A DNA stretch of 49,846 nt, filler included, from Jimgerdemannia flammicorona (Eukaryota): NCBI GenBank assembly GCA_003990765.1. It is 2 parts of 2 records of this genome, joined end to end, with 100 filler letters (N's around TTAATTAATTAA, not from the genome) between each part and the next. Parts side by side here need not be neighbours in the genome. Positions count along the whole stretch, not along the records: positions 24,976 to 49,846 come from RBNJ01000909.1; 1 more part is not named here. One strand, given 5' to 3'. Numbering within the stretch: the first letter of the stretch is position 1; the number at the start of each line of letters is the position of its first letter. Position numbers and translations under genes: made by a program. Under the pieces are notes generated by a model. That model saw only the letters and a program-made list of their open reading frames with translations, did not search any database and had not been told where the DNA came from. Below, piece by piece: positions 14,759 to 48,115 of this stretch.

Positions 14759-14761
<3 letters not shown>

Positions 14762-17300: not shown

Positions 17301-19907
17301 TTCCAAATCTTGACCTTGATTTCTTCTTTATCATTACTGTTCTCTAGGAGGGCTGATGGTTCATCATCCTTTTCTTCCTCCTTCTCTTACCTTACCAGTT
17401 TCTTAAGGGCCTTCTGTCTTCTTTCATAGTAGATTTTCTTGATTCTGCTAATACACTAGTAGCAATCATTAATATACTTTATACAGTATATCTTGATTCT
17501 ATAGAGACAGACTTCTTGTGATGTATATCCTTTAATAATTCTTTTGTACCATTCTTTTTTACTGATCTATCTGACTTTCTTTTTCTTTTTCTATATAGTC
17601 ACTATATAGGCTTCTTCTTGTTTACTTTTTTCTTTCTTCATCTCAGGCAGTACTTCTTTATTGATATTGATGGGAATTCACATCTTCTGACCTCAGTAGA
17701 TGATCTGCATCTTCTGAGTATTGAGGTCAATTATTGTCCTGGTCTTATGAAGCCACTGATTGCTGATGAGTATATCATAGTTAGTAGTATTAATTACAAT
17801 CACATCCACTGAGATGGTTACTCTTCCAAACTTGATAGAGATATCTTGAATCTTTCTCAAAGATGTGACTCTTATATTATCTGCTGTGACAAATACCAAT
17901 TTGATTGCTTCTTCAATCTCTCAACCTAGGTAGTCTGCTACTTTCTTATTGAGGAGGCATTCTTCTACTTTAGTATCAATAATGGCCTTAAAGATTCTAT
18001 CTTTGATTTAACAGATTGTATAGGCAGATGTCTTACAATTGTCTTTACTTTCTTCTCCAGAGTCTTCTTGAATATTATTGGCCTCAGTTATTTTCTAATC
18101 TTGCTCTTTGGTTGTCTTGGCAAGTCTATATCTCATTTGCTATCTGAATATAGAGATTTCTGCCAGCTGGCCAAAGATTACATTGACCTTCTGTTAGCTA
18201 AGGTTTTTGATGATATGTATCATACTTAAAGGTCTTGGTCTTATAAAGCTTCTTCTTCTTTTCTCCTTTACTGGCTGGAGTAGTTTCTTAAATAATGCCT
18301 TGAATAGTCTATTCTAGTTCCATATCTTGATCTATTTCTTCATTTTGGTTTTCTGTAGTGGTTTTTATCTGTTTTTTACTAAGTTCTTCTTGGGTCTTCC
18401 TAGTATCTCTTATAGGGTTACTTGTGGATATTTTTCTTAATAGTCTGTATGGAGTAGACCTCTTATTCTTCTTCATTAGATTCTCTAATCTCCTTGAAGA
18501 TGATAGTATTGATCTGTTCTTTATTTTGAGTAGTATTGCTTAGCTGAGTCTTATATTTAGTTTTGTTCATATATTTATATAAATAGTAGTCTTCTTCTCT
18601 ATAAGTATAATAGGTATCTCTCTTTTTATCTGAGATGGTAGTAAACTTCTGAACTGAGTGATAGTCTCTTTCTCTAATTTCCTTTATCATACATATCTCT
18701 GAGATAGGCAGTTATTTCAGCAAACTTCTTGGTAAGTTTCTCTATAGGATTGCTGTTTTTCTGCTATTTGGTAGCTCTTGGCTGAGATATGTTTCAGTTG
18801 ATCACTGTGGTAAAAATCATACTAGTTGTCTTAAGTGCTTCAATTCTGACTCCAATAACTCTTTCTATTATATGATCTTATAGATATCTGGCTATCCAAT
18901 ATCACTGGACATAGGTGACCTTCTGTAGTAGATCCAGGACTACTAGTGATGAACAGATGGCCATAGTTATCTCTAAGTAGACTCTTTTATAAAGATTACT
19001 TCAGCTACTTGATCTCAGATAGCATTAGTATAATCTGTAAGGATTATCTGATATCAGATTCTAGTGTAAAATATATTTGAATTCTCACTTATTCCTTGAT
19101 ATATTATATTGAGCTGATCTTTGATCTTATCTATATAATAGATAGTTCAGAGCCAGGCCTTCCGTGCTGCTAGTACAGTATTATCATCATTTCCTATATG
19201 AGTTATAGTTGTTAATACTGCTCTTACTAGTCCTCAGAGACTGAAGAACAAGAGAGCTACTTGCTGTTGCTATCAGAGTCCTTACAGCAGATACTGCTTG
19301 AATTATCTAAAGTAATAAATCTCAGATTGAAATAGTTCAAAGTAAAGAGAAAGTAAAGAAACTAGTAAGCCTATAGGTAGATATACTTTGAACTTACTCA
19401 CCCTATATTCCAAGAACTCTGCAGAGTCAAAAAAGATCAAGTTTTCAAGATATAGAAATCTAATATACTTATATAATTATATATCTACTATATTATAACT
19501 TAGTATCTATTGACTGATGATTTAAGATGAATTTCTCACTTTTAAGCTAAACAATAAACAATCACTACTATTTAAACAAATCAAACTAAGACATCTAGAT
19601 AAGATAGATATAAGATACTAGTATTCTACAGATATATCTTAGATGAATCAATCATTATATTCATTGATGACTTCAGAGATATTTATACAAGTTTACTAGT
19701 TATAAGATGGGTGGCTAAGTTATAAGTTATTTTAATATTATTGAAATACTATATTATATTAGGTCTTCAATTTCAAATATTTTAAAATATTTAGAAATTG
19801 TTGAAATCAGTAACTGCTAACTATATAACTATACTAATTTAGAACTGATTATAATCAAATATCTATCTCTAATTCCTTCTTTCAAATTTGACTCTACTAT
19901 TACAATA

Positions 19908-24875: not shown

Positions 24876-24975
24876 NNNNNNNNNNNNNNNNNNNNNNNNN
24901 NNNNNNNNNNNNNNNNNNNTTAATTAATTAANNNNNNNNNNNNNNNNNNNNNNNNNNNNNNNNNNNNNNNNNNNN
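24876..24975. other. Artificial contig-joining spacer (44 N + TTAATTAATTAA + 44 N)
   Basis: Exactly 100 bp and symmetric. The central 12-mer puts stop codons in all six frames. Confidence 0.95.
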
Positions 24976-25428: not shown

Positions 25429-26307
25429 ATTCAGTAGTTCTCCTTCTTGAGTGACAGGTGATCTCTGTGTAGCATGATGATCTCCAAAAGTATATGATTT
25501 TTGGCAGATGACTCGATTTGGCTCACTGGGAATAACAAATAACTTGGTGGCAGATAATTTGGATAACTTGGATAACTTGGATGTTGCTGGTTCGGTTTCA
25601 ACTGGGAATACTACTTGGATGGCATGGGTTCTCTGGGAATGCAGATAACTCAAAAATGGTGGATGATGTGGATTCTCTGGAATCGGCAGGCTTCTGGGTA
25701 ATAACTCAGATGGCATGGATTCATCTGAATCGGTGGCTCTTTTGGGAATATAATGGCATGGATTCTTCCTGAATCAGTGGCTTCAACTGGAAAATGGTGG
25801 TGAAGTTCTTCTTTGAACTTGGGTGGCAAATCTTCAGGCTTATCTGGCAAGCAAACCAAAAATGGTTCTCATTCTTTATATCAGAAAGTGGACCGGAGTG
25901 GAAAAGAAGAGAACCAAGCTCACAACTTCTTGGTAGTGGCTCATTGGCAGGTGTATCTCCTAAGTATTGCAATCCTTCCTGGATCAAGTGGCTTTTGGCA
26001 GATATTTCTCCTAAGTGTACCAGACAATTGACTTTTGCTTTGGTTTGTATTCAACTTTCGGACTGAGGTTTATTCACTCTTGTCGCTGGGGTAATTTATA
26101 CAAGTTGGTTGCTATCTAGTTACTATGTGGCTAATTATAGGTTTGCTACCTATGGCAGGTGTACAGAGTCTGTACAGGTAAACAGACTCATTCTGGTATA
26201 TCTGGCTATTTATACAGTTTCCACAGCAATGGTTGCTGGTTACTATGCTGTGTATTCACATTATCTGGCTAAGGTATAATTCAGGTGGTATGTTTTGGTT
26301 TGTTATA
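25429..26307 (-). repeat. Gypsy-B 3' LTR (partial, truncated by LINE insertion)
   Basis: Aligns with 34222-35117. Ends TGTTATA, a decayed form of TGTTACA. Confidence 0.9.
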
Positions 26308-26348
26308 TCAGCCCCCACTGAAGGATAGTCTGTCCCAGACTATTCTTC

Positions 26349-26861
26349 AGTCATCATCCCAATAGGTATAAGTAGCTTCTGCATCTATATCTGTTCCATC
26401 ATCTTCATTGTCTGTGCTAGGGTCACTCTATTCTAAAGGCTCCTCCTCTTCTTCAGGGAATAAAATCTCGACAGAATTGATAATGCTCAAACAGGTACTA
26501 GGATTCATTCCTTGAATGTCATTCAGGGAGAACTGTGCCTATGTCAGAGCTATGGCATTTCGTTTGTAAATGGTATATTGTCTGTCTACAGCAGTAGTAT
26601 CTCTTCTGGTTAGACCTGTGGTGTTTCGATATAGGTCTGCTCTGGGGCTGGAAGGTTCTGCAATAGTTCTCCAATTGCATAATAGGTCTGCAGTTGGTGG
26701 ACCTGTAGTAGGCATCTGGCCAAGGTGAGATTTTCTTGGTGAACTTGGATCTTCTGAAGGGGATTTCCATTAGCTTGGCTGAATTGGGGTAGAGGAACTG
26801 GTAGGGTCTAGAAGGAGCTGAGGACTAAGGTCTGGAGGCGCTGATCAATCCTTTGGTTCAT
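26349..26861 (-). pseudogene. Gypsy-B third ORF downstream of integrase (unknown function, acidic C-terminus)
   Basis: The ATG (26861-26859) overlaps the integrase TGA. It reads MNQRIDQRLQTL...LQTYYAIGELL...(frameshift)...RQYTIYKRNAIAL...EEEEEP...DDD. A homologous remnant lies in Gypsy A at 7200-7640. Confidence 0.6.
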
Positions 26862-29743
26862 GGTATAGAGGGAAGATATAGCTTGAGGTGATTGATGTAT
26901 ACTAGTGTTCTCAGGGTTTGTCCATCCATGCTTCTTAAATAGATGCTAGTTCCTCTGATATTGTGTACAAGATAAGGTCTTTCCCATTTGGGCTCCAATT
27001 TGGTGGCAAAATTTGTTTCAATCATGCTTCTCCAAACTAGTACTTGATCTCCAATCTTCATCTCCTGATCCTTCTGTTTCTGGTTATAGTGCTTCTTTTG
27101 TCTTTCTTGGGCTTTGATAATCTGACCTTGGGCTTGATTTTGCAACTGTTCTGCCTTTCTAAGGAGGTCTCTGAGATTCTCCTGGTCAGTAGTTCTGGTT
27201 TTCTTGACAAACATCATTTCAAATAGCTTCTGTTTGGTGGAAGCAGCAGGGGTGTTCCGAATTTCCCATAGGATCTCAGGTAAGCAGAGGTCCCAATTGG
27301 TAGGATTGACTCAGGCAAGTCCTTTCTTAATGGTCTGGTTCATTCTTTCTGTCATACCATTGGTCTGAGGGTAGTATGATGTGGTCCACTTGAGGTGGAT
27401 TTTCTGAATTAGAGCATAACTTGTGATTAGGTTATTGATGAATTCTGTGTCTTGGTCAGAGATGAGTTCTTCTGGGGGTCCATATCTGAGTGTGAGTCCA
27501 TGGAGAAGGCCTACAATGGTTAAGGCATCTGTGATTTCCATTGAGAAAGCCTTGGGCCACTTGGTCAGATATTTCACAAGTATAAGGATATATTTGTTTC
27601 TTCTTGGTATAACTGATAGAGGTCCAATTACATCTACTCCCCATCTTTGAAAGATGTGAGTGAGTGGGGGAATTGGTTGCAGAGGGGCTTGATAGTTCTT
27701 CTTTCTTTGGTACTTCTGACAGGTATCACATTTCTGAATGATGTCTTGGACTTGTGCTCTGAGGTGGGGCCAATGTTGATATTGTTTTTGAATCTTGTCT
27801 TCTGTACTTGTCTGTCCTTGGTGGGCTTTCTGGTGTTCTTGTTGGATGAGATCTTCTTATTCTTTGATGGTTACAGGGACTTCCTTTAGGGTGTAGTTCC
27901 TTGGGACACCCTTCTTCTGATTCATTGGAGCTGGTGGGAAAGTACATCAACATTGTTGTGAGCTTTCCCTGCTTTGTGGATAATGGTGATTTTGTAATCC
28001 TGAAGGATAAGGATCCCACAGGCTAGGATTCTGGTAGATTCCTTATGGTTAAATAACCATTTGAGAGCTGCATGGTCTGTGATCAGGGTGAACCTTTTTC
28101 TGATGAGGTAATGCTTGAACAGGGTGAATGCCTATATGACTGCAAGATATTCCAGTTTGGTGCTATCATAGTTCATCTGCTGCTGATTGGTAGCTCTGCT
28201 TGCATAAGCTATCACATGGTGCTGTTGATTGGGTCCTTCTTGGGCTAGGACTGCTCCGAGGCTATCTTTAGAAGCATCTATATACAAGATAAATGGCTTC
28301 TGTAGATTGGGGCACATAAGGATTAGTGCTGTAGTCATGCAGTTCTTGAGTTCTTTGAAGGCTTTCTCTTATGGTTCCATCCATTTAAATGGCACTCCTT
28401 TTTTGAGAAGGATTCGGATTGGGGTGGCAATTTGGGTGAAATCCTTAAAAGACCTTCTATAGTAGGATACTAGCATCAGGAATAATAATATTTCCTTTGG
28501 GGTCTTGGGTGCTGGCCAATTGTTGATCTTTTTGGTTTTCTTTGAGTCTGCATGGGTTTCTTCTTTTGAGACTATGAAGCCAAGGAATTCAAGTTTTTGT
28601 TTCCCAAAGTAGCATTTCTTTGCATTTAGTCTCAAGTGGTTCTTGCAGGTGAGATTGAAGAATTCCTCTAGGTGGTGTAGGTGTTCTTCGAAATTTGCTG
28701 AATAGATGTTAGAATCATCTATATATACAATCAGGCAGTGGTGGATCAAGGGGGTATAGACTAAATTCATCATCCTCTAGAAGGTGGAGGGTGCATTGCA
28801 AAGTCCAAAGGACATTCGGAGGTATTCAAACAGTTTTCCTAGCAAGAAAGGCTGTCTTTTGAATGTCTTTGGGGTCCATGGGGATCTCATGGAATTCTGT
28901 GAAGAGGTCCATACTGCTGAAGTATCTGGCATCTTGTAACTGATCCAAAAGTTCATCGATTCTGGGCAAAGGATAGGCATTCTTTTCAGTGACTGAATTG
29001 AGTTTCCTATAATCTATGCAGAGTCTCCATCCTCTTTCTTTGGTATAATAAGTATAGGGCTAGCCCAGGAGCTGATAGAGGGTCGGATGACTCCATTGTC
29101 TAAGAGTTCTTAAATATGCTCCTTTTCGAATGTTTTCAAGTGATGGGGTATTCTGTAGAGTTTCTGTTGGATAGGTATTGCATTTCCTGTATTTATGCTG
29201 TGGTGATATGATGGGTTGTATGGCAGATTGCCATAATCAGTGGTGAAGATATCTTGATATTTGTTGAGAAGTTCTACTAGTTGTTGCTATTGTTGGGGTG
29301 TCAATTCTTCTCCAATGTTGGTGGAAGGCTTTACTGTCTCCTGGGTCGCAGAGGGGCCTTTCCTTTCTTCTGGGACCTTTTGCCGTTTCCCAATAGGTTT
29401 AGTTCATAAACTTCCCTATGGGTTCAGTGGAGAAAAGGCACCAGATGTCCTATGATGGTTCCTTTTGGCAGGATGATGGTTTCCCAACTTTGGTTGGTTG
29501 CTTGGGAGTGTACTGGATTCATCTTGTCAGGAAATGTGTATCCTTCTATATCCAGGTGTGGGATATCTTCCTTGGGTTCAAAGAAAAGGTTTCTGGGGTC
29601 AGGTGGTGCAAAGATTTCGAAGGTGGTCTGTTCTCTGGGCTCCAGGATAAGATTTTTATGCAGTCTGACTGGTTGCCAGTACACTTGCTGGGGAACATTC
29701 CTCTTGAGGTGGTTGACTTGAAGGAGGTATACTTTCTTTCTGT

Positions 29744-30120
29744 CCAAACTTCCAAATCCTTTGGCTTGTCTTGTCCCTTCAGTCAGTTTGGAGACTTCTT
29801 GTAATTGTGGGGTCCTGACCTTCATGAAGACTGCTTGGGCAATCTTCTGTCCTCTAATGATTCAGTGTCATTCTGCACTACTATTGTATAGAATGACCTT
29901 AATTTCGCCTATATATTCTGAGTCAATGGTTCCTCCTTCTACAGTTATTCCTTGTCTGGCAAGTCCAGACCTAGAGGTCAGTTGGATGTAAGCTCCTTGG
30001 GGTGGCTGTATGGCTAATCCAGTTCTGATCATGAAGGTTTTTCCAGGCTTGATAGATTCATCCTCCAGACTGTGAAGATCATATCCTATATCCTCTGGGT
30101 GGGCTTTGGTTGGGGGTTTG
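29744..30120 (-). pseudogene. dUTPase domain of Gypsy-B pol
   Basis: PTKAHPEDIGYDL...RTGLAIQPPQGAYIQLTSRSGLARQGITVEGGTIDSEYIGEIKVILYN...KIAQAVF...RQAKGFGS contains all five trimeric-dUTPase motifs, with two in-frame TGA. Confidence 0.93.
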
Positions 30121-33100
30121 GCCTTGGGATGCAGCAGGGCATACTGTGCAATATCCTGAGTTTGGGCTGGCCTAAGGCTGAAGCTCCACTAGCAGAGAGC
30201 CTCCAGGCTCTGAGGTTGAGGTGTGGCCATCTGGCTCCAGAAGAGGGGTCTTGGAGGTAGTTGATTCCTCTTCTTCCTGTGGGGTCTAGGGCTTCCATGA
30301 AGTTGGTGGTATATTCTACCCATCCTTGGTGAGTTGCATGTCTGATGAGAGCTAGGATGTCTTCTCCCAAATCATAGATCTTGAGAATTCTTCTTCCTGG
30401 CTTCTTCTTGGTCTGGCTTTTTCAGATCTGACTTCTGTTGTCTCCTCTCTTCAGAGTATGGATTGCAACATCATGACTGAGGTGAATCTTCTGATGTCTG
30501 CAGTCTTGGCAGTCAGGGTGTCTCCCATGGTTGCAATATCCCATTGCTCGAAAATGATGTTCTTAGTTGTTGATTTTCTGTTGTCTTGGGAATCAGTACC
30601 CATCTTGATCATAAGTTGGTAGAAGAGTAGACAAAGGATATATTTCTGTCTGGGTAAAGAAGCCTTGTCCTCTGAATCAGCTTTGCAACTTAGTGGTAAC
30701 TTCTTGGAAGGTAGTTGACTGTGCAAGTGTGTTCAGGGGTTCTGGTCTCTGGGGTCTCTGTCTTTTCTGTTGGTCTATTAGATGGCACTGATAGCAGTAG
30801 TCTCAAGGAGAGTAGAAGACCATTTGGTGAGGACATCTTCCTAGCTGAAAAGCTCTCTCTTGGTGAGTTTCTTTCTTGGGAGTAATGGTGATTGTACTGG
30901 GCCCTTCTTCTATATTCCAAGGGTCATCATCTTCGGGTGGTATCTAGTGAGGGTCATCCCAGAGAACAAGTTCAGGGACCTCTTCTTCTTCAGGTGCCTC
31001 TCCTTCGGGAACTTCCTGGTCAGGAACTTCTTCTTTCTCAGATGATTCTTGTCCCCAAATGGCTTGTACTTCTGCAGCTTCAGTTGCAGGTGTTTCTGGA
31101 ATATGTCTGTATTTCGTCTTCTTTCTTCTGCACTCAGAGCAGGCTGTGCCAGGCGATTTCCTTGTTCCCATGATCTTGGAGGAATGCTCAGGACACTTGT
31201 ATGTCTTGAGGCAGGTAGGGCATCCTTTAATTTCTCCTGCAATGGCTCCAATGGTGATAGGGATGGTGTTCTTGGCCCACACATTGTCTTCTGGTCTATC
31301 ATCCACCAGGTTAATTCGGGGATTGAGTCTGGGATCATTTCTGTCTTCAGATTCTTCTTCTTCTTCTATGGTAGATTCTTCACTGCTTGCATATTCTTCC
31401 TGAATAGTGACCTTCTTCTTCTTCTTCAATTACTCATAGCTGGTCACCTTAACTCTATACTTCTTGCCTCAGTAGTCAAACTTGAGTACCTGTTGGCCAA
31501 TGTCAACAACTGCATTCATTTCCTTCATTCAGTTAGTGCCAAGAATCATGTCATAGGTGACAGCTTCAGTGACAACAGCTTTTGGGATGGAGCACTGAAT
31601 GTGTCCAAGGGAGATGGTGATATTTCATACTTCTTCAAGGGGTTGAGTTCGGGCTCTATCTGCTACTATGATGCTGAGGTTGGATGCTCCATCAATGGGC
31701 CATTGGAGGGTATTCATGAATCGTTTGGCAATGACACAGACAGCTGCTCCTGTATCTATGAGAATTTTTGCTTTTTGTCCTCCAATATTGCCATATAAGT
31801 AGGTGCTGACATGTTTTTCAGCTGCTTGAACAGGGATGGGAACTGGTTCTTACTGTGGGATTGGAACTCAGCCAGTACTGGACCTGATTGTTCTCAGCAA
31901 TTTGTTTCGGACTCTAGCTGGTGTCAGTTGCAGGAACTGTAGGAGAGGGACTTCCATCTTGGCCTCTTGAATCTCCTGCCATGCTTCATTGTAGATGTCT
32001 CTAGGCATGGTCTTCAGGGTGTACTTCTTCTTGGGCTTTGAAGCATCAGGTTCCCATTCTTCTTGTTCTATTTCTTCATCTTCTGGTGGTAGCTCATTTG
32101 TTTCAGGGACAAAAGGTGAAGGAGTCCAGGGAGGTGTCTCTACTTGTTCTTCTTCATGTTCTTTATCTTCTTCTTGGATGATTCTTCTACTGACATTTCT
32201 GGCTAGCTTTCCTACAGGTCTCTTCCTTTTTCTGCTGGGTAGACCGTTTTTTGGATAGTGACCTTGGTAGGGTACAAGTCCAGGTCGCTGTAGTCTTCAC
32301 TGTTGCTTGCTTCCTCGAAATCTTCAACTGGATGGGCTTCAGTCTTTTTGTACCAAGTGTTATTCCTTTGGTTTGATGATTCTGGGTCTCTTTGGTAACT
32401 TCTTTTATTGTTACATTCAGTGGCATAGTGTCCGAATTGTCCACAGTGGAAGCATTGGACTTGTGCTCTATCTCAAACAGAGTACCTTCTTTCTTCTTGC
32501 TGGTAATTCCTGTTATCTCTTGGTGGATAACCTTGGCTTCTCTGTAATGGGTATCCTTTGTTGTCTTGGTAACTCCGATTTTCGCATGTGGTAAGTTTTT
32601 CAATCTGTCCAACCAATCAGTCCAACTTGGAGCTGAGGTCTTGGATTTCACTTCTGTCCTTCTTTCCTTCCTTGGCTGGCCTTCTTTCTTCATATCTTTC
32701 TTGTCCTTGAAGGAGTCCTTGTAGGGCTTTGACCAGGATATCTTCTTTATCTTCTTTCTTGTCATGATCACTCCAAGTAGTTCCTTGTCTGATATCAAAG
32801 AATCCTTGGGCTGTATCTACTTGCTCTTCAGACCTTCTGATGCCTAGGGTGCAAATATGCTGGGCAATGTTTGGGGGAATTCCATTCATGCAGGTCATTG
32901 GACCTATGATATCCTGGTTAGTGGCATTGAATCCGGTGGCATACATTCTCTTCTGGATTGTTGTGAAGAAGGCTCTGGGTGATTCTCCAAGATTCATCTT
33001 CATTCCTATAATAGATTCTTGAGCCTTGTAGTGGGTTTCATTTCCTGCATACTTTTCAATGAGCTAGTGGACCATGGCCTCATATTCTAGCCCATAAGAC

Positions 33101-33850
33101 ATTGCTGCTTATATCTGTCTCACCAGTTCTGAATCTGGGTTATTTGCTGTTTGATGGAAAATTCCTCTGGCTGGTTCTCTGAGTTGAGCCTTGTAGATGG
33201 CAATTTTTCTTTCATCTGAGAGATTCCTCAAGGCTGTGATTTCTTCAATTCTATCAAGAAATTCTCTGGGTTTCTCTGGATATCCTGTAAAGGTTGGCAA
33301 TGAGGTGGCCATTTCATCATCACTTTCTTCTGATTCTGGTTTGGGTTTGGATTCTGATTCTGATTCACTTTCTGAACTGTCACTGGAGATGGGGGTGCTT
33401 GGGTATCTTGAGGATGGTGTTCTGGACCTTGGACAAAGTGGAATAAGTCTAGGTATTCTTGTAGGAGCTACTTCTAACTCTGTAAGGGGTTGTGGTAAAG
33501 GTTCTATTGGTGAAATTGATGGGACTGGTATGGGGTGTCTGGCTGTAAGATCTCAGGCTTGGGTAATAAGATCTTCTAGTTCTTGGGCAAGTTCTTCAAA
33601 ATCTTCAGCAGGGCCACTGGTATTATCTGATTGATCTATTTGGGGATTTTGGGCTGTACTGCCTTCTGGTTCTAGTTGGGATCCTTCTGATGCTGAGTAG
33701 TTGGCAAGTCTTGATGTGATTACTTCTCTTCCTATCCAGATGCTGATTATAACTGGTTCTCCTATAGTAGCAGAGGTTGGTGTTGTATCAAATGTATCCA
33801 GTTTGACTGTGGATTCTTATGAGCTGAAAAGTCATATTGATTTTGAAATC

Positions 33851-33868
33851 TTCCCAGTTGAGCCCCCA
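33851..33868 (-). promoter_or_regulatory. Primer-binding site, tRNA-Pro-like
   Basis: TGGGGGCTCAACTGGGAA lies 2 nt after the 5' LTR end. It resembles the tRNA-Pro PBS TGGGGGCTCGTCCGGGAT, and two of the differences are CpG transitions. Confidence 0.7.
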
Positions 33869-33870
33869 AA

Positions 33871-35117
33871 TGTAACGTACCCAGGTCAATGGAGGCAAAT
33901 TACAAGGTTGGGGGTTGATGTAGTTTGGCTTGAGCCCCCAGTTACTTTGTCAAAAAGCAATAAAATGTTCTAAGATTCCTGAGGTCCTTGGTGTTTAGTG
34001 GTATAATAGTCAAAGCTGGATATCTGCAAGCGATTTGTATGTCGATTTCCTAATTTGGACAGTTCTCTGGGTATAGTAGCGATTTGTGTGTGAATGGGTT
34101 TCCTTCTCGGGTCAACTGAGAATTGGTAGAATTCGTATATAGTACAACAGGTTCCTTATTTGGGTCAACTGGGAATGCCACAATTTGTGTAGCATGATGA
34201 TCTCTGTGTGACAGTCTGGCAATTCAGCAGTTCTCCTTCTTGAGTAACAGGTGATCTCTGTATAGCACAATGATCTCCAAAAGTATGCAATTTTTGGCAG
34301 ATGACTCGATTTGGCTCACTGGGAATAATGAATAACTTGGCAGTGGATAATTTGGATAACTCAGATAACTTGGATGTTGTGGGTTCAGTTTCAACTGGGA
34401 ATACTACTCAGATGGTGCGGGTTCTCTGAGAATGCAGATAACTCAAAAATAGCAGATGACGCGGATTCTCCAGAATCAGTGGGCTTCTGGGTAATAACTT
34501 GGATGGCATGGATTCATCTGAATTGGCGGCTCTTCTGGGAATACAATGGCGCAGATTCTTCCTGAATCAGTGGCTTCAACTGGGAAACAGTGGTGAAGTT
34601 CTTCCTTGAACTTGGGTGGCAAATCTTCAGACTTATCTGGCAAGTGAACCAAAAACGGACGTGTTCTTTGTATCCAAAAGTGGACTGGAGTGGAAAAGAA
34701 GAGAACCAAGCTCACAACTTCTTGGCAGTGGCTCGTTGACAGGCATATCTCTTAAGTGTTGCAATCCTTTCTGGATCAAGTGGCTTTTGGCAGGCATTTC
34801 TCCTAAGTGTACCAGACAATTGACTTTTGTTTTGGTTTGTGTTCAACTTTTGGACTGAGGTTTATTCACTCTTGTCTCTGGAATAATTTATACAAGTTGG
34901 TTGCTATCTGGTTACTATGTGGCTAATTATAGATTTGCTACCTATGGCAGATATACAGAGTCTGTATGGTGTACAGAGTCTGTATAGGTAAACAGACTCA
35001 TTCTGGTATGTCTGGCTATTTATACAGTTTCCGCAGCAATGGTTGCTGGTTACTATACTGTGTGTTCATGTCACCTGGCTAAGATATAATTCAGGTAGTA
35101 CGTTTTGGTTTATTACA
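33871..35117 (-). repeat. Gypsy-B 5' LTR (1247 bp)
   Basis: TGTAAC...ATTACA termini, adjacent PBS, and homology to 25429-26307, 48690-49360 and 49657-49846. Confidence 0.92.
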
Positions 35118-38100
35118 ATATATATATATAAAATTATAGAATAGAATAAGTATGGGTGAGAGGGAAGTAATTTGGCAAGCAGTAAAATGAGATGAATAAA
35201 ACAAATATGAAGAGTGGAGGTTCAAGCAATCAAACTAAAATAAGCATCAAAGGGGAATATATAGATTACTTTATACTATATCATCTCGTTCCATACTAAG
35301 TCAAGTAGTGTAGCATCTAAAACTGATATACCAATGAGCATTATAAGACCTCTATGTCTGCCCTAACCTAATAACTACAAGTAACTACCACCCAATCCTA
35401 ACCTGGTAGCTATAAGTAACTACCTGTTATATATCCATTGACCAGTAATCTCACTAGATATTAAAAATTCAATATCTCTATACAACTAACTCACTCTCAA
35501 ATATATTATATATGATAAATATATATATATATATATATATATGTCTTATTTGAGAAGTTCCTAAAAGAAAAAAGGGCTATAAATGGAATGAGTAGTAAAT
35601 TCAGCCCAAATAAATATCCTAAAGAGAGATAAAGAGAGAAGGTAAAAGAAATAATAGAAGGAGTAGCAGAGATATACCAAAAGGAAAAAGATAGTATAAG
35701 TGATACAGGGTGAACTAGAGTGATATATAGTTTGCTCAGAAAGAGATAAACAAGTAGTGTGGTAGAAAGGCAACAAGTGTTTATAAAAAGTGGTAAAAAG
35801 AGAGAGAGGGTAATATGTTGTTAGCCAGCTCCTTTCTCTGCTATCTTACCAGTCACAAGGTTTGGTAGGTGACCTTCTGAGTTGCCTTTTCCCTATTATT
35901 ACCCCCTCTATCTTGGGTTGGTTTGCTGTGCCTACAGGGGCATAGTGGGAGGAGAGCAATAGTGATGAGTTGCCCCTTTATCAGTATCAGAGCAGTGTCT
36001 TCTCCACTTTTTTGCAGATTCTGGTGCCTTCAGCTATGTCTGGGGTGTACCAATTTTGGTGCAGCACCTTCTTTCTTTTGCTGTCACCAACAAGGTATTG
36101 TCTCAGTATATCATAGGTTACATAGGGAGTCAGCTGACCTTGGGCATCAAGTGCCCAGTGTAGGTTACCTACAGGTCCTCAGTGCCTGTAGTGGGGCCCT
36201 CTGGCTTTGGCAAGCTTCTTGGTGAGCATGGTTCTGGTGTAGGTGACTATTTTTCAGATGTTATCAGATGGGAGGAGAGATGGCCATCACAGATAAGTGG
36301 AAGAGCGATTACAGTAAACCAGTAGGGTGTCAGGCTGGGGGTGGTCATCAGGGCTGGGGTGGGTACTGCTTCAGTGGGGCCTTTTGATTGGTGTAGAGTA
36401 GTTAGGTCATAGGTGTCACTCTTGGCTTCTTTTGGTGATTTGGCAGGTTGGGCCCCAGTCATTGGGGGGCCCGAGGCTACCCATTTTAGGTGTCTTGATG
36501 GCACTCAACTGGAACTGAAAGCTGACATAGCAATGTGATCAAGGCCCACAAGCTTGAGTAGTGGGGTATTGAGGATCTCCTCCTATCTCACATGTAAGTC
36601 CTCTACTTACCTTATCTGGGAGAACTAGGCCCTACCCACCATAATGTACTTTGATGAGAGTTTTTTCTTTTATTGTCATTCTCTTTAGGGTGGTAGGGGC
36701 TATTCTATTTGGCTCAGGCATGGCCTTATATATACATTGGGGTCTCGGGCATGTGCTTTCAGTTGTTAGTATATGGCTGAGTTTCCCATAGTGGTAGGGA
36801 GAGCATGGTGTATAGAATGAGATGCAGGCCAATATAGGTCCTGCTGTACCTGGTATGGTTAAGCTGCTGGACAATAGCTAGCCTAGGTTAATGGGGGAGC
36901 AGTGCTTGATGGGTAGTAGGGGAGGGTTTTGGCCTATATAGTCTAGGTTCCCTTCTAATAAAAATCTCAAGGACTCTGAGTCTATATAAAAAAAAAAAAA
37001 AAAAAAAAAAAAAATATGTTGTTAGCCTGAAAGGAAGACATGTAATAGCATGGTGAAAAAGAGGTCAGGGAGAGCAAAGCAGCAGTAAGAGGGTGAGGCT
37101 AATGAGTGGTCAGCTTATACTAATGGTGTATATATATATGGTGTAAGTGAAGCAAGGGCAGTTGTGATAGAAGAGTAGGGAGTAGCAGAGAGGTGATGAG
37201 TAGTCAGCTTAAGAAAGGAGTATACATATGGTACAGAAGAGAGAATGATAGAGATAATAGAGAATTAGAGAGAAAGCAAATATGAGATAGGTACATATGT
37301 ATGTAAATATAAGAGTGAAATACATCACTTGTCCAATAGTCCAAAACCTGAATCTCATGGTCTGATAGCCTGACTGCTGCAGTATCCAAGGCAGCACCAA
37401 TCTGAAAACTATACCTAGTGTAAGTGAGGGTCAAGACCAATGTAGAGTAAAAGAGAATATAAATAATTGATCAGCCACTGGTGAGAGAATACATGCTGGC
37501 TGGATAATGAAAATAAAGATATATAATCAGCTGTCAGGAAAGAGAGATAAAGGTATTAAAGGAGAAAAATGATACAGAGCAAGTCTGGGGGGGGGCCAGG
37601 GAATGTGGATAGAGATACCATGATAAAAAGGGTCAGTTTTGGAGAAGGGGAGCATCAGAATGATATAAGAGAGATTGGCAATGGAGGGATGGAAGATAAT
37701 ACAGCCCTGAGAGGTATATTTGAGGGGGTCAAAGGTGTGGTTCCATGTGATCTTACCTGGTCTGAGGAAACCAAAATATGCAAGAGTGATAGCAGTGGTG
37801 AACATAAGATCAGGAGCATCACAACTCAACCAGAGGTGTGGAAGGAGTCATTGAAGACAGGAGGATATCCAAGGAGGTCGAGAACAAATGGGCTGGGTGT
37901 CTAACCATCATTTGACACCATGCAAAACCCTTGGAAGTTACTGGAGACCTAGTAAGGGGTCTGGTAGGCTGGAGTCAATGTGTAGAGACCAGACAGTGGA
38001 AAGATACTTCTTGATGGTAGCAGGCATAAGCTGATGGAGAGCCAATGAACCAACTAATTGCATTAGCACCAGCTCAGATGTGGGGAGGGCAGGTTGGTCA

Positions 38101-38340
38101 GTGGGAGTGTGGAGGGCACAGAAGTGGAAAAAATTCTGCTGGCCAGAGGAGTACGTCCAATGCATAGATCTTGCCAGGCTGAACCAAAGGAAGAAGGCCA
38201 TGAGGGGTGGAAGGGGGGCATGGCCATAGATCAAATTGGCATTGGGAGAGGCTGTGCAAGAGGGGCGAGAGAGCGGAAATGGATGAGGTCAGCATGTGAG
38301 AGGGTGTTGGCTATGCCGTTATCTTGAGAAGAGATGAAAA
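35118..38340 (-). mobile_element. DIRS/Ngaro-type tyrosine-recombinase retrotransposon fragment (RNase H tail + YR), interrupted by the 1.2-kb retroposon
   Basis: RNase H C-terminus DNGIANTLSHADLIHFRSLAPLAQP (38233-38340), followed by YR: TIKKYLS, LAYFGFLRPGKI, LPFSKTDPF and YTRYSFQIGAA...IQVLDYWTSDVFHSYI (decayed GHSFRIGAA...GRWxS..F..YI). The left boundary is uncertain. Confidence 0.85.
35827..37012 (+). mobile_element. Non-autonomous ~1.2-kb poly(A) retroposon, copy 2, 15-bp TSD
   Basis: AATAAA followed by an A-run from 36988. TSD AATATGTTGTTAGCC at 35812-35826 and 37013-37027. Same 5' start as copy 1. Confidence 0.9.
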
Positions 38341-40088: not shown

Positions 40089-40496
40089 TTACTTATGACA
40101 TATTTTACCAAGGTGTTTACAACGTGTGCAGGGCATTCCTCGACAACCTTTCTTGTCCTTCGCGCATTCGAAACACCGCTTTCCGGGTGAGTTCCTTTTT
40201 GTGGTCCTGCCGGTAACATGAATGCGACAACGCCTCTTCTTCTTCAAACAGTCTGGACATTCCTTATACGGAATCGTCCTGGGAATGAAGGTTGTTGAGA
40301 TTTCGGTGGTCGTCTGTTGGGTGAAATTCTCTCTTGGCTTCGACGTTGTGTGATTATTTGCATCCCCATTTGGGAAGTTGCCGACGTAGGCTTCGGAGAT
40401 GAAACGAAGGTCGGGAGTAGGTCCACCGGTTGAGGCGCCGTTCGGCATTCTGTTGTCAAATGACTTCGACATAATATGTTCTTGAAGAGAACCCAT
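40089..40496 (-). CDS. Small protein or exon with a CCCH module plus a Zn(II)2Cys6-like cluster (putative DNA-binding); open copy of a 3-member tandem family
   Basis: CPDCLKKKRRCRIH-x14-CFECAKDKKGCRGMPCTRCKHLGKIC (C-x2-C-x6-C-x4-C-x2-C-x6-C). A pyrimidine tract with CAG just upstream and a GTAAGA just downstream suggest it may be an internal exon. Confidence 0.7.
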   Translation of the reverse strand: MGSLQEHIMSKSFDNRMPNGASTGGPTPDLRFISEAYVGNFPNGDANNHTTSKPRENFTQQTTTEISTTFIPRTIPYKECPDCLKKKRRCRIHVTGRTTKRNSPGKRCFECAKDKKGCRGMPCTRCKHLGKICHK

Positions 40497-41478
40497 ATTC
40501 CCTTCTGGGAAAATAAAATACAGAGAGGAGAGAAGGAGGCATCCTACACGAATTGATAGAGGATTAGCAACTTTCTTAAGAATTTGACAGGGTAAGCGAT
40601 CAGAGAGCTGGGGGGCTGGTTATCTGTTGCGTCTATAATTAGAAATATATTTGTCAATAAAATTAAGTTTTGACCCCATTACTCCAATGAGTGCTATTGG
40701 CTAGAGAGACATTTTGCCAAATATGTGTTATTTAAGCTTCTAATGGTATATGCCACAGAAGAAATGTTAAAGAGTGGCCACCCTGATCAATGCCATTCAC
40801 AGGTTCGTGATATGACCAAAATTTTCTTTTCCAAATTTACCATATAGTAATTTTTAGAGTTTCTTCGTTGCATTCACATACGCAAAATAAAACTAAGTGG
40901 AAAATTCGGATACGACTCCCGCGAACACGAGGCTTAATAAAAATCAGAAACGGTCATTATACATACCTGACTATAGAGAAAGCAACACCGTTAAGCCTCA
41001 CTCCATTTCGAGTCAACTCGCAGGATCGACGCCGGATATGGCAGTGGCTCGAGTCATGAGGTACCAATTTACGTGAAGGAAAGAGACTCTGCAAGAGTAT
41101 GATCTTTGTTGTGTTAGATTTGCTTAAATGAGGCGAATCCAACGAGCTAAAGAATCTAAAGTTCGATATGTTTTCATCTAGTTATACAATTTCAAAGTTT
41201 AATTTAAATTTCGAAATAGAATCGGATCGGCGGGTTGGGTCATTGGTCGGGTAGGGTAGTAGCTCTACCTGCTCCTGAATTTCCTTGTCCGAATTCCGCA
41301 TCCCTCACCCGAAATCTGCAGGATGACGATGTTGATAATGTGTTGTATAATTAATGTGCCTGGAACAAACCAGAACAAAAAATTTCAGGTTGACCAAACT
41401 GAACCGAAGATAACAAGTTCTGCTCAGTTTAAATCCCCGTTCTACTCCTTCGCTAACCCACCCGCTACCAACGGCCAC

Positions 41479-41517: not shown

Positions 41518-43056
41518 GAGCCGGAGATGATAATAGATTGGATGAGTAAATCATCGTATGTGTATTTGGGCATGAGGAAAGTTTCTGTCTCGAATGCGTT
41601 GCATCGGTCAGTTCGAAGAACCCGACATACAAGAGATGTACAAATAGCGAGGTGGGTGGGAGTGAAATGTATGGTGACGACGATTGAGCGTAAGGGGAAG
41701 ACAAGTGGATTCCGTGCTATACATATATATAGAGATTGCTAAATCGGGTAAACGTGTCTTTAGCGTGCTATCCCTTCGGGATCCCTTCAACTTAAAATAG
41801 ATTTTGACTAATTTGGCAAGATTTCATCACAGCGAATCGGTAGCACTGCTTGCGCGAAATGAATCTGATTGTTATGGTTTCGAGCATTTTATTCATTGCA
41901 TATACATTGATAAGAAAAGAACAAACGTTGCATTGCAGGTACCGCAGAAATCTTTGTCCCGTTCATTGAGGGGTTCGATTTACGGTCGGATTGATTCCGC
42001 CCGAGCGAGACGGAATTCCAACGTTCGAATCAGTAAATATGGGGGCGGCAATCTCCAAACGCGAAACACTAAATTGTCTCCTAACTATATCACAAAAGTA
42101 CAGCACCTATTTCATACCAGAAATGTACAAGAAATGTAGAGTATGGTTGAGTACTGTATTATTATGATGAGTACGGAACTGAGCAAATTCATTGAAAAAT
42201 GTAAAAATCGGCTGAGATGACGCGCATGTCTGTTTCCCCTTTATATCCTAAAACTAGTGAACATCAAGTTCGAGAAAATCTTTGGATACCCAAGCGTACC
42301 CGAATCCCCCGCCGAGCGCCCACTCAGACACACGTTTGTGTCATTTACGTTGTACGAAATTCAATTCAATTCTATGGATGTATCGCCTGGCTGGGACAAA
42401 ATATGTATTGTGTTCCCATGTCGATTGCCCGCGTGCGACGGTTATTCCTATCTCTTGCTACTCAAATAACTGTTTGTCTGATAAACGTGTTATTTTATCA
42501 GTCATATTAATAGGTTTGCATATTTAGCAGAACATACACGCCAGCTTCGCTTCAAAGTCCGCTTGTACCTTAGGTTATATTGTCCCTTGTCATTTGGGGT
42601 CTGTGCGGGCGAATGCCTTCAAAAGTATTTCTTGCACACTGTTTCGACATTACATATTACACTCTCGATACTACATATTTTATTAATAAAGACATCATTT
42701 TTTCCGTCAACGGAAACCGTTTGTAATGGTCAAACACGCAGTTAAGCCTTCCTTGTCTTACACGTATGACACGGCAACCGTGAGACAGCCTGTGTCACAT
42801 ACAGATTCAATTGAATTAAGTCATGTTAAACTAGTTATTTAGGAGCTATTTGTAATTCACTTCACTCAGTCAAGAAATGATCTGCATAAAGCTTACAAAT
42901 TATAAATTATATCTTACACATGTCAATGCATAAATTTCATCATAATTTGTACATTTCATACTATTTTAAATCATATAAATTCTTGTATATAAACAACCAT
43001 GTAGTTTTGGTTCGTAAAGGGTTGGTGGCAAGTCGACATTTCGGTCAACAGTTGTC

Positions 43057-43466
43057 TTACATTTCATTATGACAAATTTTACCAAGGTGTTTACAACGTG
43101 TGCAGGGCATTCTTTGACAGCCTTTCTTGTCCTTCGTGCATTCAAAACACCGTTGCCGGGAGAGTTCCGTTTTGTGGTCCTGCCAGTAACATGAATGCGA
43201 CAACGCCTCTTCTTCAAACAGTCTGGGCATTCCTTATACGGAATCGACCTGGGAATGAAAGGTGTCGAGATTTCGGTGGGCGTTTGTTAGGTGAAATTCT
43301 CTCCTGGCCTCGACGTTGCGTGATTAAATACATCCCCATTTGGGAAGTTGCCGATGTAGGCTTCGGAGGTGAAACGAAATTCGGGAGTAGGTGCACCGGT
43401 TGAGGCGCCGTTCGGCATTCTGCTGTCATATGGCTTCGATATGCTATGTTCTTGCATGGAACCCAT
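43057..43466 (-). pseudogene. Second copy of the CCCH/Zn2Cys6-like gene, with a premature stop and a frameshift
   Basis: CAA>TAA at 43287-43289 (ENFT* versus ENFTQ). A 1-nt deletion at ~43153 lies between CPDCLKKRRCRIH and CFECTKDKKGCQRMPCTRCKHLGKIC. Confidence 0.82.
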
Positions 43467-44109
43467 ATTCCCTTCTGGGAAAATAGAATATAGGCGGGGG
43501 AGAGAAGGGGGCATCCCATACGAACTGATGTTGTGGAAGAGAGGATAATAACTTTTCTTGGGACTTTAACGGGGTGTGCGATCAGAGAGCGTAGGAAGTG
43601 CGTAGGGGCTGGTTATCAAAGTTCTGGTGGTACGGTCATATGGTTGCTTCCGAGTGTCATTGGTGCCTGCGGTATGTGTCAATAAGTAAAAATAGTTTTG
43701 TCAATAAAAATTAAGATTTTGGCCCCATTACTCCAATGAGTATCATTGGAAGGCTAGGGATAGATTCTGCCAAGTATGTGTTACTTAAGCTTCTATCATT
43801 ATATGCTACAGAAGGAATGCTAAAGAGGGGCCACCCTGATCAATGTCCTTAACAGACTCGTGCTATGGCTAAAATTTTCCAAGTCCCAATTCACCATAGA
43901 GTAATTTTTTAGAGTTTCTTCATTGCATTCACACATGCAAAATGATACAAAGTGGCAAATTCGGATACGACTCCCGCGAACACGAGGCTTAATAAAAATC
44001 ATAAACGCTCATTATACATACCTGATTTATAACAGGATCGACGACGGATATGGCAGTGGCCCGGGTCATGAGGTCAAATTTTATGTACCCCGAATGCCGG
44101 CCATTACTA

Positions 44110-44593
44110 CCGTTTTTTTCCGTCAACCCGATTTTTTCCACCACTGGATTATTTTTCAGAGGATGCACCAATTGCATTATTTTTAGTCTTTGTGGATCGT
44201 CCCACCTCTGGACCTCTCCTCAGCCCATTCCATCCATATTGACAATGACAACAACGACGACAATGGCGAAACGGCAACGATGATCTTCATCCATTTATAA
44301 TCCTTCATTTATCCATTGTGAAATCCAGATTGGATATCGTGAGCGAAAAGGTGTATTATTTGAGCTTCTAAGAACGGTTATTGGGGTCGGAAGTTTGTTC
44401 CATTGTGTTGAAGTTCAAATTTATATATATGTATGTAAGGCAAAGAAAAAAAAGACGTGAACACAGCCATGCATTTTATCAACAAAGATAGCGATGATCC
44501 ACAAAGACTAAAACGGACGTGATGGGTGCGGTAAAAACTCGTCCTCTGAAAAAATCCAGTGGTGAAAAAAATCAGGTTGAGGGAAAAAAACGG
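44110..44593. mobile_element. MITE with ~55-bp terminal inverted repeats, Tc1/mariner-pogo-like
   Basis: CCGTTTTTTTCCGTCAACCCGATTTTTTCCACCACTGGATT...CAGAGGA (44110-44163) is the inverted match of 44542-44593. It is flanked by TA on the left and TG on the right (likely a mutated TA TSD). No coding capacity. Confidence 0.75.
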
Positions 44594-45571
44594 TGGGGCT
44601 ATAAGGTATCCCTATAATTGGAATGGGTCGAATGTTCACAATGCACAGAATTCCACGCTCAGCCCGCCATAAACGGGACAAGATTTTCGCGGTGCTCACA
44701 ATACAAGGATATGAGGCGAGGAAAATGCTAAAATTGTCGCGATCAGGAAAATGAACCGGTTTAATTCATACAGCAGTGCTTCCCCACCAATCACAACCTG
44801 ATCCCAGTCACGCCAATCTGGGTACAAACGACAACACCGACCGACGCGGGAGCTCGGACAGAGTGTGACCGGGCGCTGTAATAAATACACTGGGCTATCA
44901 AGTGATATTCCCTATTTAGTTTTATGTCCTCACTGTGTCATATGGTGCAATTCTTTTGGATGATAAAATTCTCTCAAGTCCATCAACTGTAGCAAGTGGT
45001 TAAACAACACTCAATTATTAAGAATTGCAATGGCTTCAAATCGGGTTTGTGATTGGCCGGATTGCATAGTCATTTTTTTGGTATATATTTTTAATCTCCG
45101 CATCACGCGACAATATTCCCAATAACTTTTGGACATCAAACACATTTCCAATGGCAACATTACAACACAAACAACCCTTCTCGTTTGGAGTCAAGTCAGG
45201 AGATCAATCCGACATATATTCTTCGAAGTCAGACGACCAACTTAGAGCAAAGTAGGCGAGACACGACGAACCATGAGGGTCTGGCGTTCAACCAATGTCA
45301 CATAAAGATTGAATTAAATCGAGTCTCGTTCAAATGAATATTTAGATGCCACTTCACTAGTCAAAAAAGGATAGGCATAAAGCTTCACAATATCAAGTTC
45401 TGAATTTAAGCTATACTATACTAACTAATTAACTATATTTTTAATTTCGATATACATATAAATAAAATCAGAGATTGTCATAATCTACTGATTTCACACT
45501 ATTCTATAAATTCAAGCATGTTGAATAATCATTTGGTGAAGTATATAAATTTGAGATCAATGATTGACTTA

Positions 45572-45990
45572 CCTATCTTGTGACAAATCACACCGAAGTA
45601 TTCGCAACGTGCGCAGGGCTTTCCTCGACATAGTTTCTTGTGCAATTTGCATTCAACACACATTTCTGGGAGAGGTCCGTTTTGTTGTCCTGACAGCAGC
45701 GTGAATACGACATCGCCTCTTCTTCAAACAGTCTGGACATTCTGCGTATGGAATGGGCTCAGAGATAGAAGCGGCTGTGGTGGAAGTGGGCGTCTGTGGA
45801 GCGGCATTTGCGATGGAAAGTATTTGGTAAGATGGTGGATTAGCTTGGAGATTCTGCGAGGTCGGCCGTAGCTTGATTCATTGCGTCGCCATTTGGCAAG
45901 TCGCAAGTGCTTGTCTCAGACGCGACAGTTTGCAGGTTGTCATACGTCGGATGGTTTTCAGCGGTATCCTTGTCGCTTTCTGGGGAAAGC
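45572..45990 (-). pseudogene. Third, diverged copy of the CCCH/Zn2Cys6-like gene, with two frameshifts
   Basis: LPNGD...(fs)...IPYAECPDCLKKRRCRIHAAVRTTKRTSPRN(fs)CVECKLHKKLCRGKPCARCEYFGVICHK, followed by a GTAAGT donor-like site. Confidence 0.8.
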
Positions 45991-48115
45991 GGGTATTGGC
46001 AAGAGAGAGTAAAGGTGGTCACAAGGCGGCATGAAAAACGAGCTGAATTCGATGTCATGGAATTTGGTAGAGGAGAGCAATTGTTTTCTAGGCATTGGAA
46101 AACTGTCGGAATTTTTCAAATGTTTGTACATGTTCTGCTTTTTAAAAATTTACGACGATGAGGCTTCCTTTTTTTCGTCCGTCTATCATATTTTTCTGGA
46201 AGTGTTCCGTGATGATAAGATTGCCTTTTTTTTTTTTTTTTTTTTTTTTTGACAAAAAAAAAAAAAATAAAATAAAAATCGCCAGTTAGCTCAAATATCG
46301 TATGAGGTCCAAGAATACTGACCGCGTGGTTGTGAAGTATATATTAAAATTTACAGTTTGCCAGGTGTTAGTGACATTCTTCGAGCGTCCTGATATATTA
46401 TATCCGTGTAACTAGCGTGTCGGTGTCTAAAATACAGGAAAAGACAATTTGTTTATATTGCCCCAGACGGAATTGTTTATCCAGATATTCTATACTTGCA
46501 TAATCGACGCTGCGGTGTGTTTCTAAAAGAAAGGTACACTGCCTCATGAATACATCAGAATTCTTTGAATTGAAATTATGATTAAGAGTCCCAGAACAAA
46601 ATTTCATCGCTCGATGAGTATTTTCGGGACCCTGGGGTTCCTGAGCAAATTCTTCATAGTAATACATATCAATTAAACTCGGCTCCGAAGCTGTGCACCT
46701 TATCACTCAACCTACATATCGTTTCCTGACAAACCTAAATGACAAGTATCCCGGAATAATACCAAAAGCCGCATCAGAAAGGAAACGACCGTCTAATATT
46801 TTTAAAGGAGACGTTGATACGAATCAGAGCAAATATTAGGAACCACTTATCCGAGGTGCTTCGGGTAAACAAACCAGTACATCATAATAAGTCGATTCAC
46901 GTTAAGTATCAGTGTTGGCGAATTCATAACATTTGGCGGGTTTATCCATTTATCTAAACCCATAATTCATTGGAACTATATGTAATTTTATTTATATGGG
47001 CCACATAGCCAACGTTGATATCCTGGCTGATTTCCGGCCTGCTCTTCACTTAAATTGTCTTAGCTGCCTTGGTGCCGATGTAGTTCTCCATTGCGCCACT
47101 GTCCAGAAGGACTTCAATCTTCTGTTACCTCTATTCTTTTATTCCCCAGTTCCCCAATTGTTGTTTACATGCCTATGTTTATTCGTCAGTTTATATATGG
47201 AAACCACTTCTATTCCATAAAATATACTTTGGAAAAATTCGATTCTGCTTATAAGTGCTTGATTAGTCTTTTTTTTTTTTTTTTAAAAAAAAAATTTCTT
47301 CGAACCAGTTGACGGTCTCATCGAACTTACCCCTGACCCAGCCTCGGGCAATACTTGGAAAAATCCATCGTCATTCAGAGTACAAATAGGAAATCTCATA
47401 CCGCAGGATGGTTTCTTCCACATATCAACCGGCGCAGCCTTCGCACTTTCGGAACTGAAAGGTATCGCGGAGTGACGCAGGATATGGCAGTGGCCCAAAT
47501 CAGTCATCATTGCCTGTGGTCCCAATTTACGTACCCCATTGACCGGAATAGGCAGTTCTAGGATACGGAGTTTCGCGCTGATTTATGTCAATATCTCCCT
47601 TACCTGGGTTTTGGAAATTTCCCTTAATACAATTGTGTTAGCGTTTAACGGTTCAAACGCAGGAATTCATCGGACTAAATCCGACGCTTCTGTCAGTGCA
47701 AGCCAAATCCATCAATAAACGCGTTCAGGACGGACAATTCTGCCTTTGGTTAATGCCGATTCTCTGTTTATCGTAGGATATGCCACAAGGAAAATGCTAA
47801 AATATTTCCTTCAGTAAAATGGAGAAACCGATTTAATTCACGCAGCAGCGGTACTAAACATCGCTTCTGTATATCACATTATCCAGGCGAAAAGCATAAG
47901 TCGTTTTTTTTTACATCTTCAATTTCTGCTTTCCATTAGGCACGACAAACAATGGCCAGCGCTCGGGAGGGGTAATATATACTGTGGTCCATCGAGTGAT
48001 ATCCTTTTTTTTTTTATTTTTTTTTTATGTGTTATATGTTACCTTTCTTTTGGAGGATTAAATTATCATGTCAAATTATTTTTTGGCAGAGGATTAAATT
48101 TAATCTATTCAGGTG

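Follow-up and report, generated by a model that had tools for sequence, protein, structure and literature searches.

A zinc bi-module in the pol region of a degenerate Ty3/Gypsy element of Jimgerdemannia flammicorona and its likeness to the zinc region of a nearby tandem gene family

The window considered here, a stretch of 49,846 nucleotides from the fungus Jimgerdemannia flammicorona (GCA_003990765.1) in which two parts of the assembly are joined end to end, harbors a degenerate Ty3/Gypsy retrotransposon, referred to as Gypsy-B, and a small tandem gene family, both within the part derived from RBNJ01000909.1 (positions 24,976 to 49,846). In its pol frame, the element carries a short zinc bi-module that resembles the C-terminal zinc region of the genes, which lie 9 to 15 kb from it. 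Gypsy-B (25429..35115, minus strand) is recognized by its domain content and its pair of long terminal repeats (LTRs; 25429-26305 and 34222-35115, 87.7% identity), which bound an element of 9.7 kb. All of its domains are encoded on the minus strand. A gag CCHC knuckle (32215-32472; Pfam zf-CCHC, 24.5 bits) is followed by a protease with a DTGA motif (31628-31849), for which three aspartyl-protease families score slightly under their Pfam cut-offs, a dUTPase (29871-30188), a reverse transcriptase (RT; 28372-29059; Pfam RVT_1, 40.8 bits), an RNase H (about 27925-28368) and an integrase (26861-27856; Integrase_H2C2, 40.0 bits; rve, 22.6 bits, under its cut-off). The two LTRs and the order gag CCHC, protease, RT, RNase H and integrase are those of Ty3/Gypsy elements, with the RNase H label read from the translation, without family-search support. 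The copy in the window is dead, because its LTRs are 12% apart and its frames carry numerous stops and frameshifts.

Between protease and dUTPase lies a spacer of about 435 codons (30190..31500, minus strand) in which a Pfam search named no family. It contains the bi-module (31222-31103, minus strand), located about 75 codons past the protease end and ahead of the dUTPase. Its translation reads CPTCLKTYKCPEH / SSKIMGTRKSPGTA / CSECRRKKTKYRH, that is, a C-x2-C-x5-C-x2-H knuckle, a 14-residue basic linker with R-K-SPG and a C-S-E-C-x6-Y-R-H stretch, whose Tyr codon (TAC at 31111-31109) is a single G>A step from TGC. In Gypsy-B, knuckle and linker are followed by only the first third of a six-Cys cluster, and where Cys3, Cys4, Cys5 and Cys6 would be expected it reads Y, E, A and Q. 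R, P and T among these lost Cys positions are still present, and the missing second cluster half was not found in the other two reading frames of the element. The module is embedded in an open frame of 161 codons (30944..31429, minus strand) with acidic tracts on both sides of it. This open reading frame (ORF) shares the frame of the protease, from which it is separated by four in-frame stops, and the frame extends to about 30190, interrupted by more in-frame stops. The same pol frame of the spacer carries two additional Cys/His motifs (30425-30562 and 30680-30943, minus strand), C-x-H-x4-C-x2-C-x-H-x3-H and C-P-H ... C-x2-C-H spanning an in-frame stop, for which Pfam gave no match.

The soil metagenome run X1 provides thousands of short contigs that are 80-99% like Gypsy-B. 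Their depth in the bin of the module is 211 versus 136-304 in the adjacent bins, which is like the rest of pol. Because of this depth and the frame shared with the protease, the module is, as read from sequence, an integral part of Gypsy-B pol. At position 31116, all 14 X1 contigs that cover the module carry T for G (14/14), which exchanges Thr for Lys, the residue found in the genes. Among the changes listed for these contigs, none falls in the Tyr codon, a weak hint that Tyr represents the Gypsy-B family state rather than a recent G>A in this copy.

The tandem genes at 40-46 kb are present in three copies in the window, all on the minus strand. Copy 1 (40089..40619), the sole intact one, is a 176-codon open frame with its first ATG at 40496. 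Its zinc region (40259-40098) reads CPDCLKKKRRCRIH / VTGRTTKRNSPGKR / CFECAKDKKGCRGMPCTRCKHLGKIC, with one extra Lys, and comprises a CCCH knuckle, a basic linker whose arm reads S-P-G-K/R, and a six-Cys cluster of Zn2Cys6-like type, directly followed by the stop. The linker has 14 residues in Gypsy-B and in copy 1 alike, and the spacing of the six-Cys cluster in the genes is 2-6-4-2-6. Copy 2 (43072..43565; zinc region 43229-43072) is a pseudogene, interrupted by an in-frame stop (43287-43289) and, in the linker, by the loss of 1 nt. Copy 3 (45583..46115; zinc region 45739-45583) is a diverged pseudogene that suffered a 2-nt deletion in the linker, has its N-terminal part in a different frame and reads SPR instead of SPG; its match to copies 1 and 2 at the DNA level persists in the zinc region only. 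The initial annotation, in which element and genes were paired, had quoted peptide strings for Gypsy-B and the three gene copies that proved right in every case, as did the single-step relation of the Tyr codon to Cys. The common layout that it described, with equal spacing, a 14-residue linker and R-x-SPG, applies to Gypsy-B and copy 1, with copy 3 departing from it by its SPR. The genes do complete the six Cys as proposed there, in a zinc region that is intact in copy 1 only.

Further members of the family are indicated by X2, a sequencing run whose RNA nature is a guess. Two of its contigs match the copy 2 region 42690-43722 with 0 differences and 0 gaps. As they are identical to copy 2 including the deletion, the frameshift is no assembly slip. 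Other X2 contigs are about 85% alike over copy 1 at a summed depth of 215-380, which points to more family copies elsewhere. The single database relative, obtained with copy 1 in a word-index search among proteins of similar lengths, is a hypothetical protein of Jimgerdemannia flammicorona (E 2.6e-17). The protein matches the N-terminal part and the beginning of module 1 before it leaves the frame just after CPDCLKKK. Hence, three of the four known family members are broken within the zinc region, each at a different site. Alignment with MAFFT also placed the half-cluster of the genes on their own first knuckle, a hint that the CCCH knuckle may be an old internal duplicate of the half-cluster. 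Both gene units have kept CGG-Nx-CCG sites (40907 and 43962; 38958 and 41987; 39750 and 42772), one pair of which lies about 400 nt upstream of the first ATG in copies 1 and 2; these are candidate binding sites only. Between copies 2 and 3, an inverted repeat (44109-44594) with 46-nt arms that are 91% complementary and 394 nt apart may represent a small non-autonomous element.

The tandem genes behave as host genes. The CpG observed/expected ratio is 0.97-1.11 across 38-48 kb, like that of the host genes at 1-8 kb, while the element blocks (8-22 kb and 26-38 kb) show 0.00-0.24. Neither terminal inverted repeats nor LTRs were found around the gene units, and Pfam recognized no transposase, RT or integrase in the frames scanned at the cluster. 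Comparison of copies 1 and 2 yields a ratio of nonsynonymous to synonymous substitution rates (dN/dS) of 0.11 for the zinc region (54 codons) and of 1.09 for the N-terminal part (82 codons). As the sole part under purifying selection in proteins of roughly 150-176 residues, the zinc region most likely binds DNA. The genes probably constitute a small, lineage-restricted host family. Just downstream of the cluster, CpG-poor DNA holds two open frames (37530-38288, minus strand) for which Pfam and PDB searches gave nothing and which we presume to resemble a Crypton or DIRS-type tyrosine recombinase, one its N-terminal and the other its catalytic part.

Is the likeness between the element and the genes more than that of any two Cys-rich peptides? 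A BLASTP comparison of the Gypsy-B ORF with copy 1 gave 33.9 bits (E 3e-7 for the pair). In an all-against-all comparison of 929 six-frame pieces of the window, each of at least 30 residues, this pair ranks first among those not due to DNA-level repeats or true domain pairs (dUTPase/dUTPase, RT/RT), which account for the higher scores; the noise floor is near 22-25 bits. With a profile built from the genes only, Gypsy-B reaches 25.7 bits, corresponding to E 6e-7 for a search of all 929 pieces, versus 8.4 for the next unrelated piece. The test against Cys-rich decoys that the initial annotation had suggested came out in favor of the pairing: for the whole module, the real score against this profile was reached by 0/20000 full shuffles and 1/20000 shuffles with Cys and His held fixed. 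For parts of the module, Cys/His-fixed shuffles reached the real score in 61/20000 cases (knuckle and linker alone) and in 422/20000 cases (half-cluster alone, 6.4 bits), so that either half adds to the likeness by itself. An earlier Smith-Waterman shuffle test against copy 1 alone was weaker (119/20000). When 177635 distinct PDB sequences were searched, the zinc region of the genes found no match at E<=10 and the best match of the Gypsy-B module was a RING finger with 12.2 bits; on the same scale, Gypsy-B and the genes match one another with 14.9-21.8 bits. The half cluster was initially taken to end in His. Cys3 to Cys6 are indeed missing from the element, but the likeness continues past this residue as [C/Y]-R-x-[M/I]-P-[C/E]-T. 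By these tests, the likeness exceeds the Cys/His skeleton, and it most probably results from common descent.

Zn2Cys6 clusters of the GAL4 type are a fungal host domain that binds two zinc ions and CGG-type DNA sites, with a spacing of C-x2-C-x6-C-x5-12-C-x2-C-x6-8-C. The Cys3-Cys4 loop of the genes has 4 residues and is thus one short of the 5-12 range, and Gypsy-B, with only the first two cluster Cys, lacks the six-Cys spacing of Zn_clus. Its ACSECRRKKTK aligns with positions 1-12 of Pfam Zn_clus (PF00172) at 18.4 bits, under the gathering cut-off of 21 bits. The cluster of copy 3 aligns with positions 3-31 at 18.0 bits and that of copy 2 scores 9.6 bits, likewise under the cut-off, and copy 1 gave no match to Zn_clus at E<=10. 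No Pfam family reaches its cut-off on the Gypsy-B module or the zinc region of the genes. The earlier label "Zn2Cys6-like" is thus appropriate as a statement of likeness and does not extend to family membership. The language-model clusters nearest to the Gypsy-B stretch are Zn_clus proteins at 0.78, which is a lead only, as the best ESM Atlas scores (0.79 and 0.78) are below the level that counts. A reading of the module as copper fist or RING was discarded, with only weak RING/ribbon Pfam rows at E>=0.13 and a PDB RING match of 12 bits.

Relatives of the element module were sought more widely. A word-index search among longer proteins with the element ORF returned no relative, and one with an alignment (A2) as query gave none at E<=1. 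Likewise, a scan of 1.84 billion representative proteins with a 96-residue Gypsy-B stretch revealed no polyprotein with a related spacer; its sole hit (E 9.6e-4), an ankyrin-repeat protein matched in four stretches, was judged spurious. Metagenome contig scans with the Gypsy-B stretch and copy 1 gave no confirmed relative. In viral contigs, one hit (L001) is a 17-residue match outside the module and was taken as chance, and a scan with an integrase query found nothing. The window itself offers a second dUTPase-bearing element, Gypsy-A (about 14000-19000, minus strand), which is heavily decayed, with about 30% G+C and a CpG observed/expected ratio of about 0. It encodes a protease (17696-17920) and a dUTPase (17009-17386; 35.2 bits), both on the minus strand, and also holds RT and integrase remnants. 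No such zinc motif is present in its protease-dUTPase gap of about 300 nt. The module-bearing spacer would then be specific to the Gypsy-B lineage.

How did one module come to reside in both a retrotransposon and a host gene family? The initial annotation had offered three answers, namely capture of a host domain by the element, domestication of the element domain by the host, or a host family acting as mimic or regulator of the element. Since no relatives were found beyond one Jimgerdemannia flammicorona protein, the direction cannot be read from a tree and phylogeny does not separate the three, while inference favors capture. We tentatively favor, with somewhat less than even confidence, that the Gypsy-B lineage took the module from a member of the host gene family or a close relative. 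This preference is based on Zn2Cys6 being a fungal host domain, with the full cluster in the genes and a truncated one in the element, as well as on the absence of the spacer from Gypsy-A and on searches that yielded no other module-bearing Gypsy polyprotein. The 120-base stretch would thus encode a small basic module, probably zinc-binding, of common descent with the putative DNA-binding region at the C-terminal end of the gene products. Uptake would have occurred into the protease-dUTPase spacer, comparable to the reported dUTPase uptake by fungal Gypsy elements, after which Gypsy-B would have preserved, between two acidic tracts, the knuckle and linker along with the first third of the cluster. 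Within the Pol polyprotein, the module would have bound nucleic acid and may have served as a tether or targeting device of the integration complex or acted on the element's own LTR. No CGG-Nx-CCG sites were found in the Gypsy-B LTRs, a result that is uninformative because the CpG depletion of the element would have erased them.

Several observations weigh against the capture of a module from this gene family. The evidence comes from a single dead copy of the element and three of the gene, one of them intact. The Gypsy-B half-cluster resembles the general Zn_clus consensus no less than it does the genes, and therefore the donor may be any Zn2Cys6 gene or a member of a wider family. If so, the specific link rests on module 1 and the linker, for which 61/20000 decoys reach the real score. 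Because Gypsy-A is so heavily decayed, its missing module is weak evidence. The zinc region of copy 1 was modeled by AlphaFold with low confidence (predicted local distance difference test, pLDDT, 57), and after correction for the all-against-all comparison the BLASTP E value is a modest 0.03 or so by an arithmetic estimate. Finally, only 7-9/25 third codon positions match between Gypsy-B and the genes, so that any transfer must be old, and convergence on a common design of zinc knuckle and basic arm is conceivable as another source of the likeness.

The last points lead to the strongest competing explanation, in which element and genes have no specific common origin: two basic Cys/His knuckle pairs would have arisen independently under the same constraints, or would descend separately from the Zn2Cys6 family. 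We regard this as unlikely, though deserving of serious attention. The common region spans only about 40-47 residues, its third codon positions are at the random level, the pair was chosen post hoc and the corrected E value is about 0.03. Moreover, several other Cys/His motifs in the element spacer raise the chances of a match, and module 2 alone is weak. On the other hand, decoys that preserve every Cys and His attain the score just once in 20000 trials, Gypsy-B stands 17 bits over the next piece of the window, and the zinc proteins of the PDB all remain far below. Independent origin would also have to account for a collinear order of knuckle, equal-length linker with R-x-SP, CxEC, K-rich stretch and [C/Y]R..P.T.

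The opposite direction of transfer would have the host family derive its zinc region from the pol of a Gypsy-B-like element and complete the six-Cys cluster later, possibly to yield proteins that mimic or repress the element. The homology evidence (25.7 bits with the genes-only profile, 1/20000 shuffles) serves this domestication equally well, the gene cluster adjoins an element block, and the birth-and-death turnover of the family, with two of three copies broken, as well as an N-terminal dN/dS of about 1 would fit a conflict with an element. However, a full binuclear cluster would have to be built from a half, the rest of the genes bears no resemblance to the element, the searches yielded no further Gypsy polyprotein with the module, and Gypsy-A lacks even the spacer. 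Domestication is hence considered rather improbable. We give very little credence to the idea that the "genes" are pieces of another mobile element and the likeness one of transposon to transposon: it would suit a decaying, multi-copy tandem family with further copies implied by the X2 contigs and a CpG-poor element block immediately downstream (36-38 kb), but the cluster has a CpG observed/expected ratio of about 1.0, unlike all element blocks of the window, its units are devoid of terminal inverted repeats and LTRs, Pfam gave no transposase, RT or integrase in the frames scanned there, and the zinc region is under purifying selection.

Capture by Gypsy-B, the preferred reading, could be carried one step further. 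The element may have possessed its own sequence-specific DNA-binding module between acidic tracts, in the manner of a miniature activator or tether, while the host proteins, with their fast-changing N-terminal part and their tandem array shaped by birth and death, may act as decoys that compete for its sites in an arms race. This extension is highly speculative, and we deem it very doubtful. If true, it would describe a fungal arms race in which a retrotransposon and host decoys derive from one zinc module. For an early-diverging lineage of fungi, a transcription-factor-type zinc module within pol would point to DNA-sequence-directed targeting or self-regulation of the element. A direct handle is provided by the paired host family in the form of one intact small protein. 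With one dead element and one intact gene, the pairing is a lead rather than a result.

The window contains a few other features. In the part upstream of the two 44-N runs (24876-24919 and 24932-24975), an intron-split host gene for a ZFAND2-like protein with AN1 zinc fingers is located at 990-2218 (plus strand) and one for a LysM-domain protein at 3871-4473 (minus strand). They are followed by a 6-kb block (8000-14000) whose strands are extremely asymmetric, with a GC skew of +0.39 to +0.49, a purine-rich plus strand and a CpG observed/expected ratio of 0.00-0.03, in which no tandem repeats and, in its frames, no Pfam match were found.

Among known zinc modules, Zn_clus is the closest to the genes, whose six Cys likewise form two CxxC-x6-C halves accompanied by basic residues, again in a fungus. 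They differ from it in that a CCCH knuckle precedes their cluster, which lies at the C-terminal end of a protein of some 176 residues, and the Gypsy-B module differs by its lack of Cys3 to Cys6. With the retroelement CCHC knuckle (PF00098), the Gypsy-B module has in common a short Cys/His knuckle in basic surroundings within a retroelement protein. In contrast, the CCHC knuckle reads C-x2-C-x4-H-x4-C and belongs to gag, whereas the module reads C-x2-C-x5-C-x2-H and belongs to pol; no match to PF00098 was listed for it at E<=10.

LTR retrotransposons are known to take up host domains such as the chromodomain or dUTPase, which alters where and when they insert, and in Ty3/Gypsy pol the chromodomain sits after the integrase. 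The uptake of a host module into pol is hence known already, and what would be new is the kind of module, namely a zinc module of the transcription-factor type. A dUTPase between protease and RT has been described for fungal Gypsy elements, an arrangement that Gypsy-B shares, and the zinc motifs given there for such elements are CCHC and HHCC only (PMC2864245). For LTR elements in general, a short review counts the chromodomain and a DnaQ-like exonuclease among the accessory domains (PMC6338049), and the passages considered from both articles mention no comparable zinc module. Literature searches, judged mostly by title, found no publication on a zinc-cluster module in retrotransposon pol paired with host genes, in agreement with the initial statement that no description of the pairing was known. 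As a lineage-specific addition within pol, the Gypsy-B module resembles the dUTPase and chromodomain of other Ty3/Gypsy elements. It differs from these accessory domains in being a short zinc and basic stretch of DNA-binding type that has its look-alike in nearby host genes.

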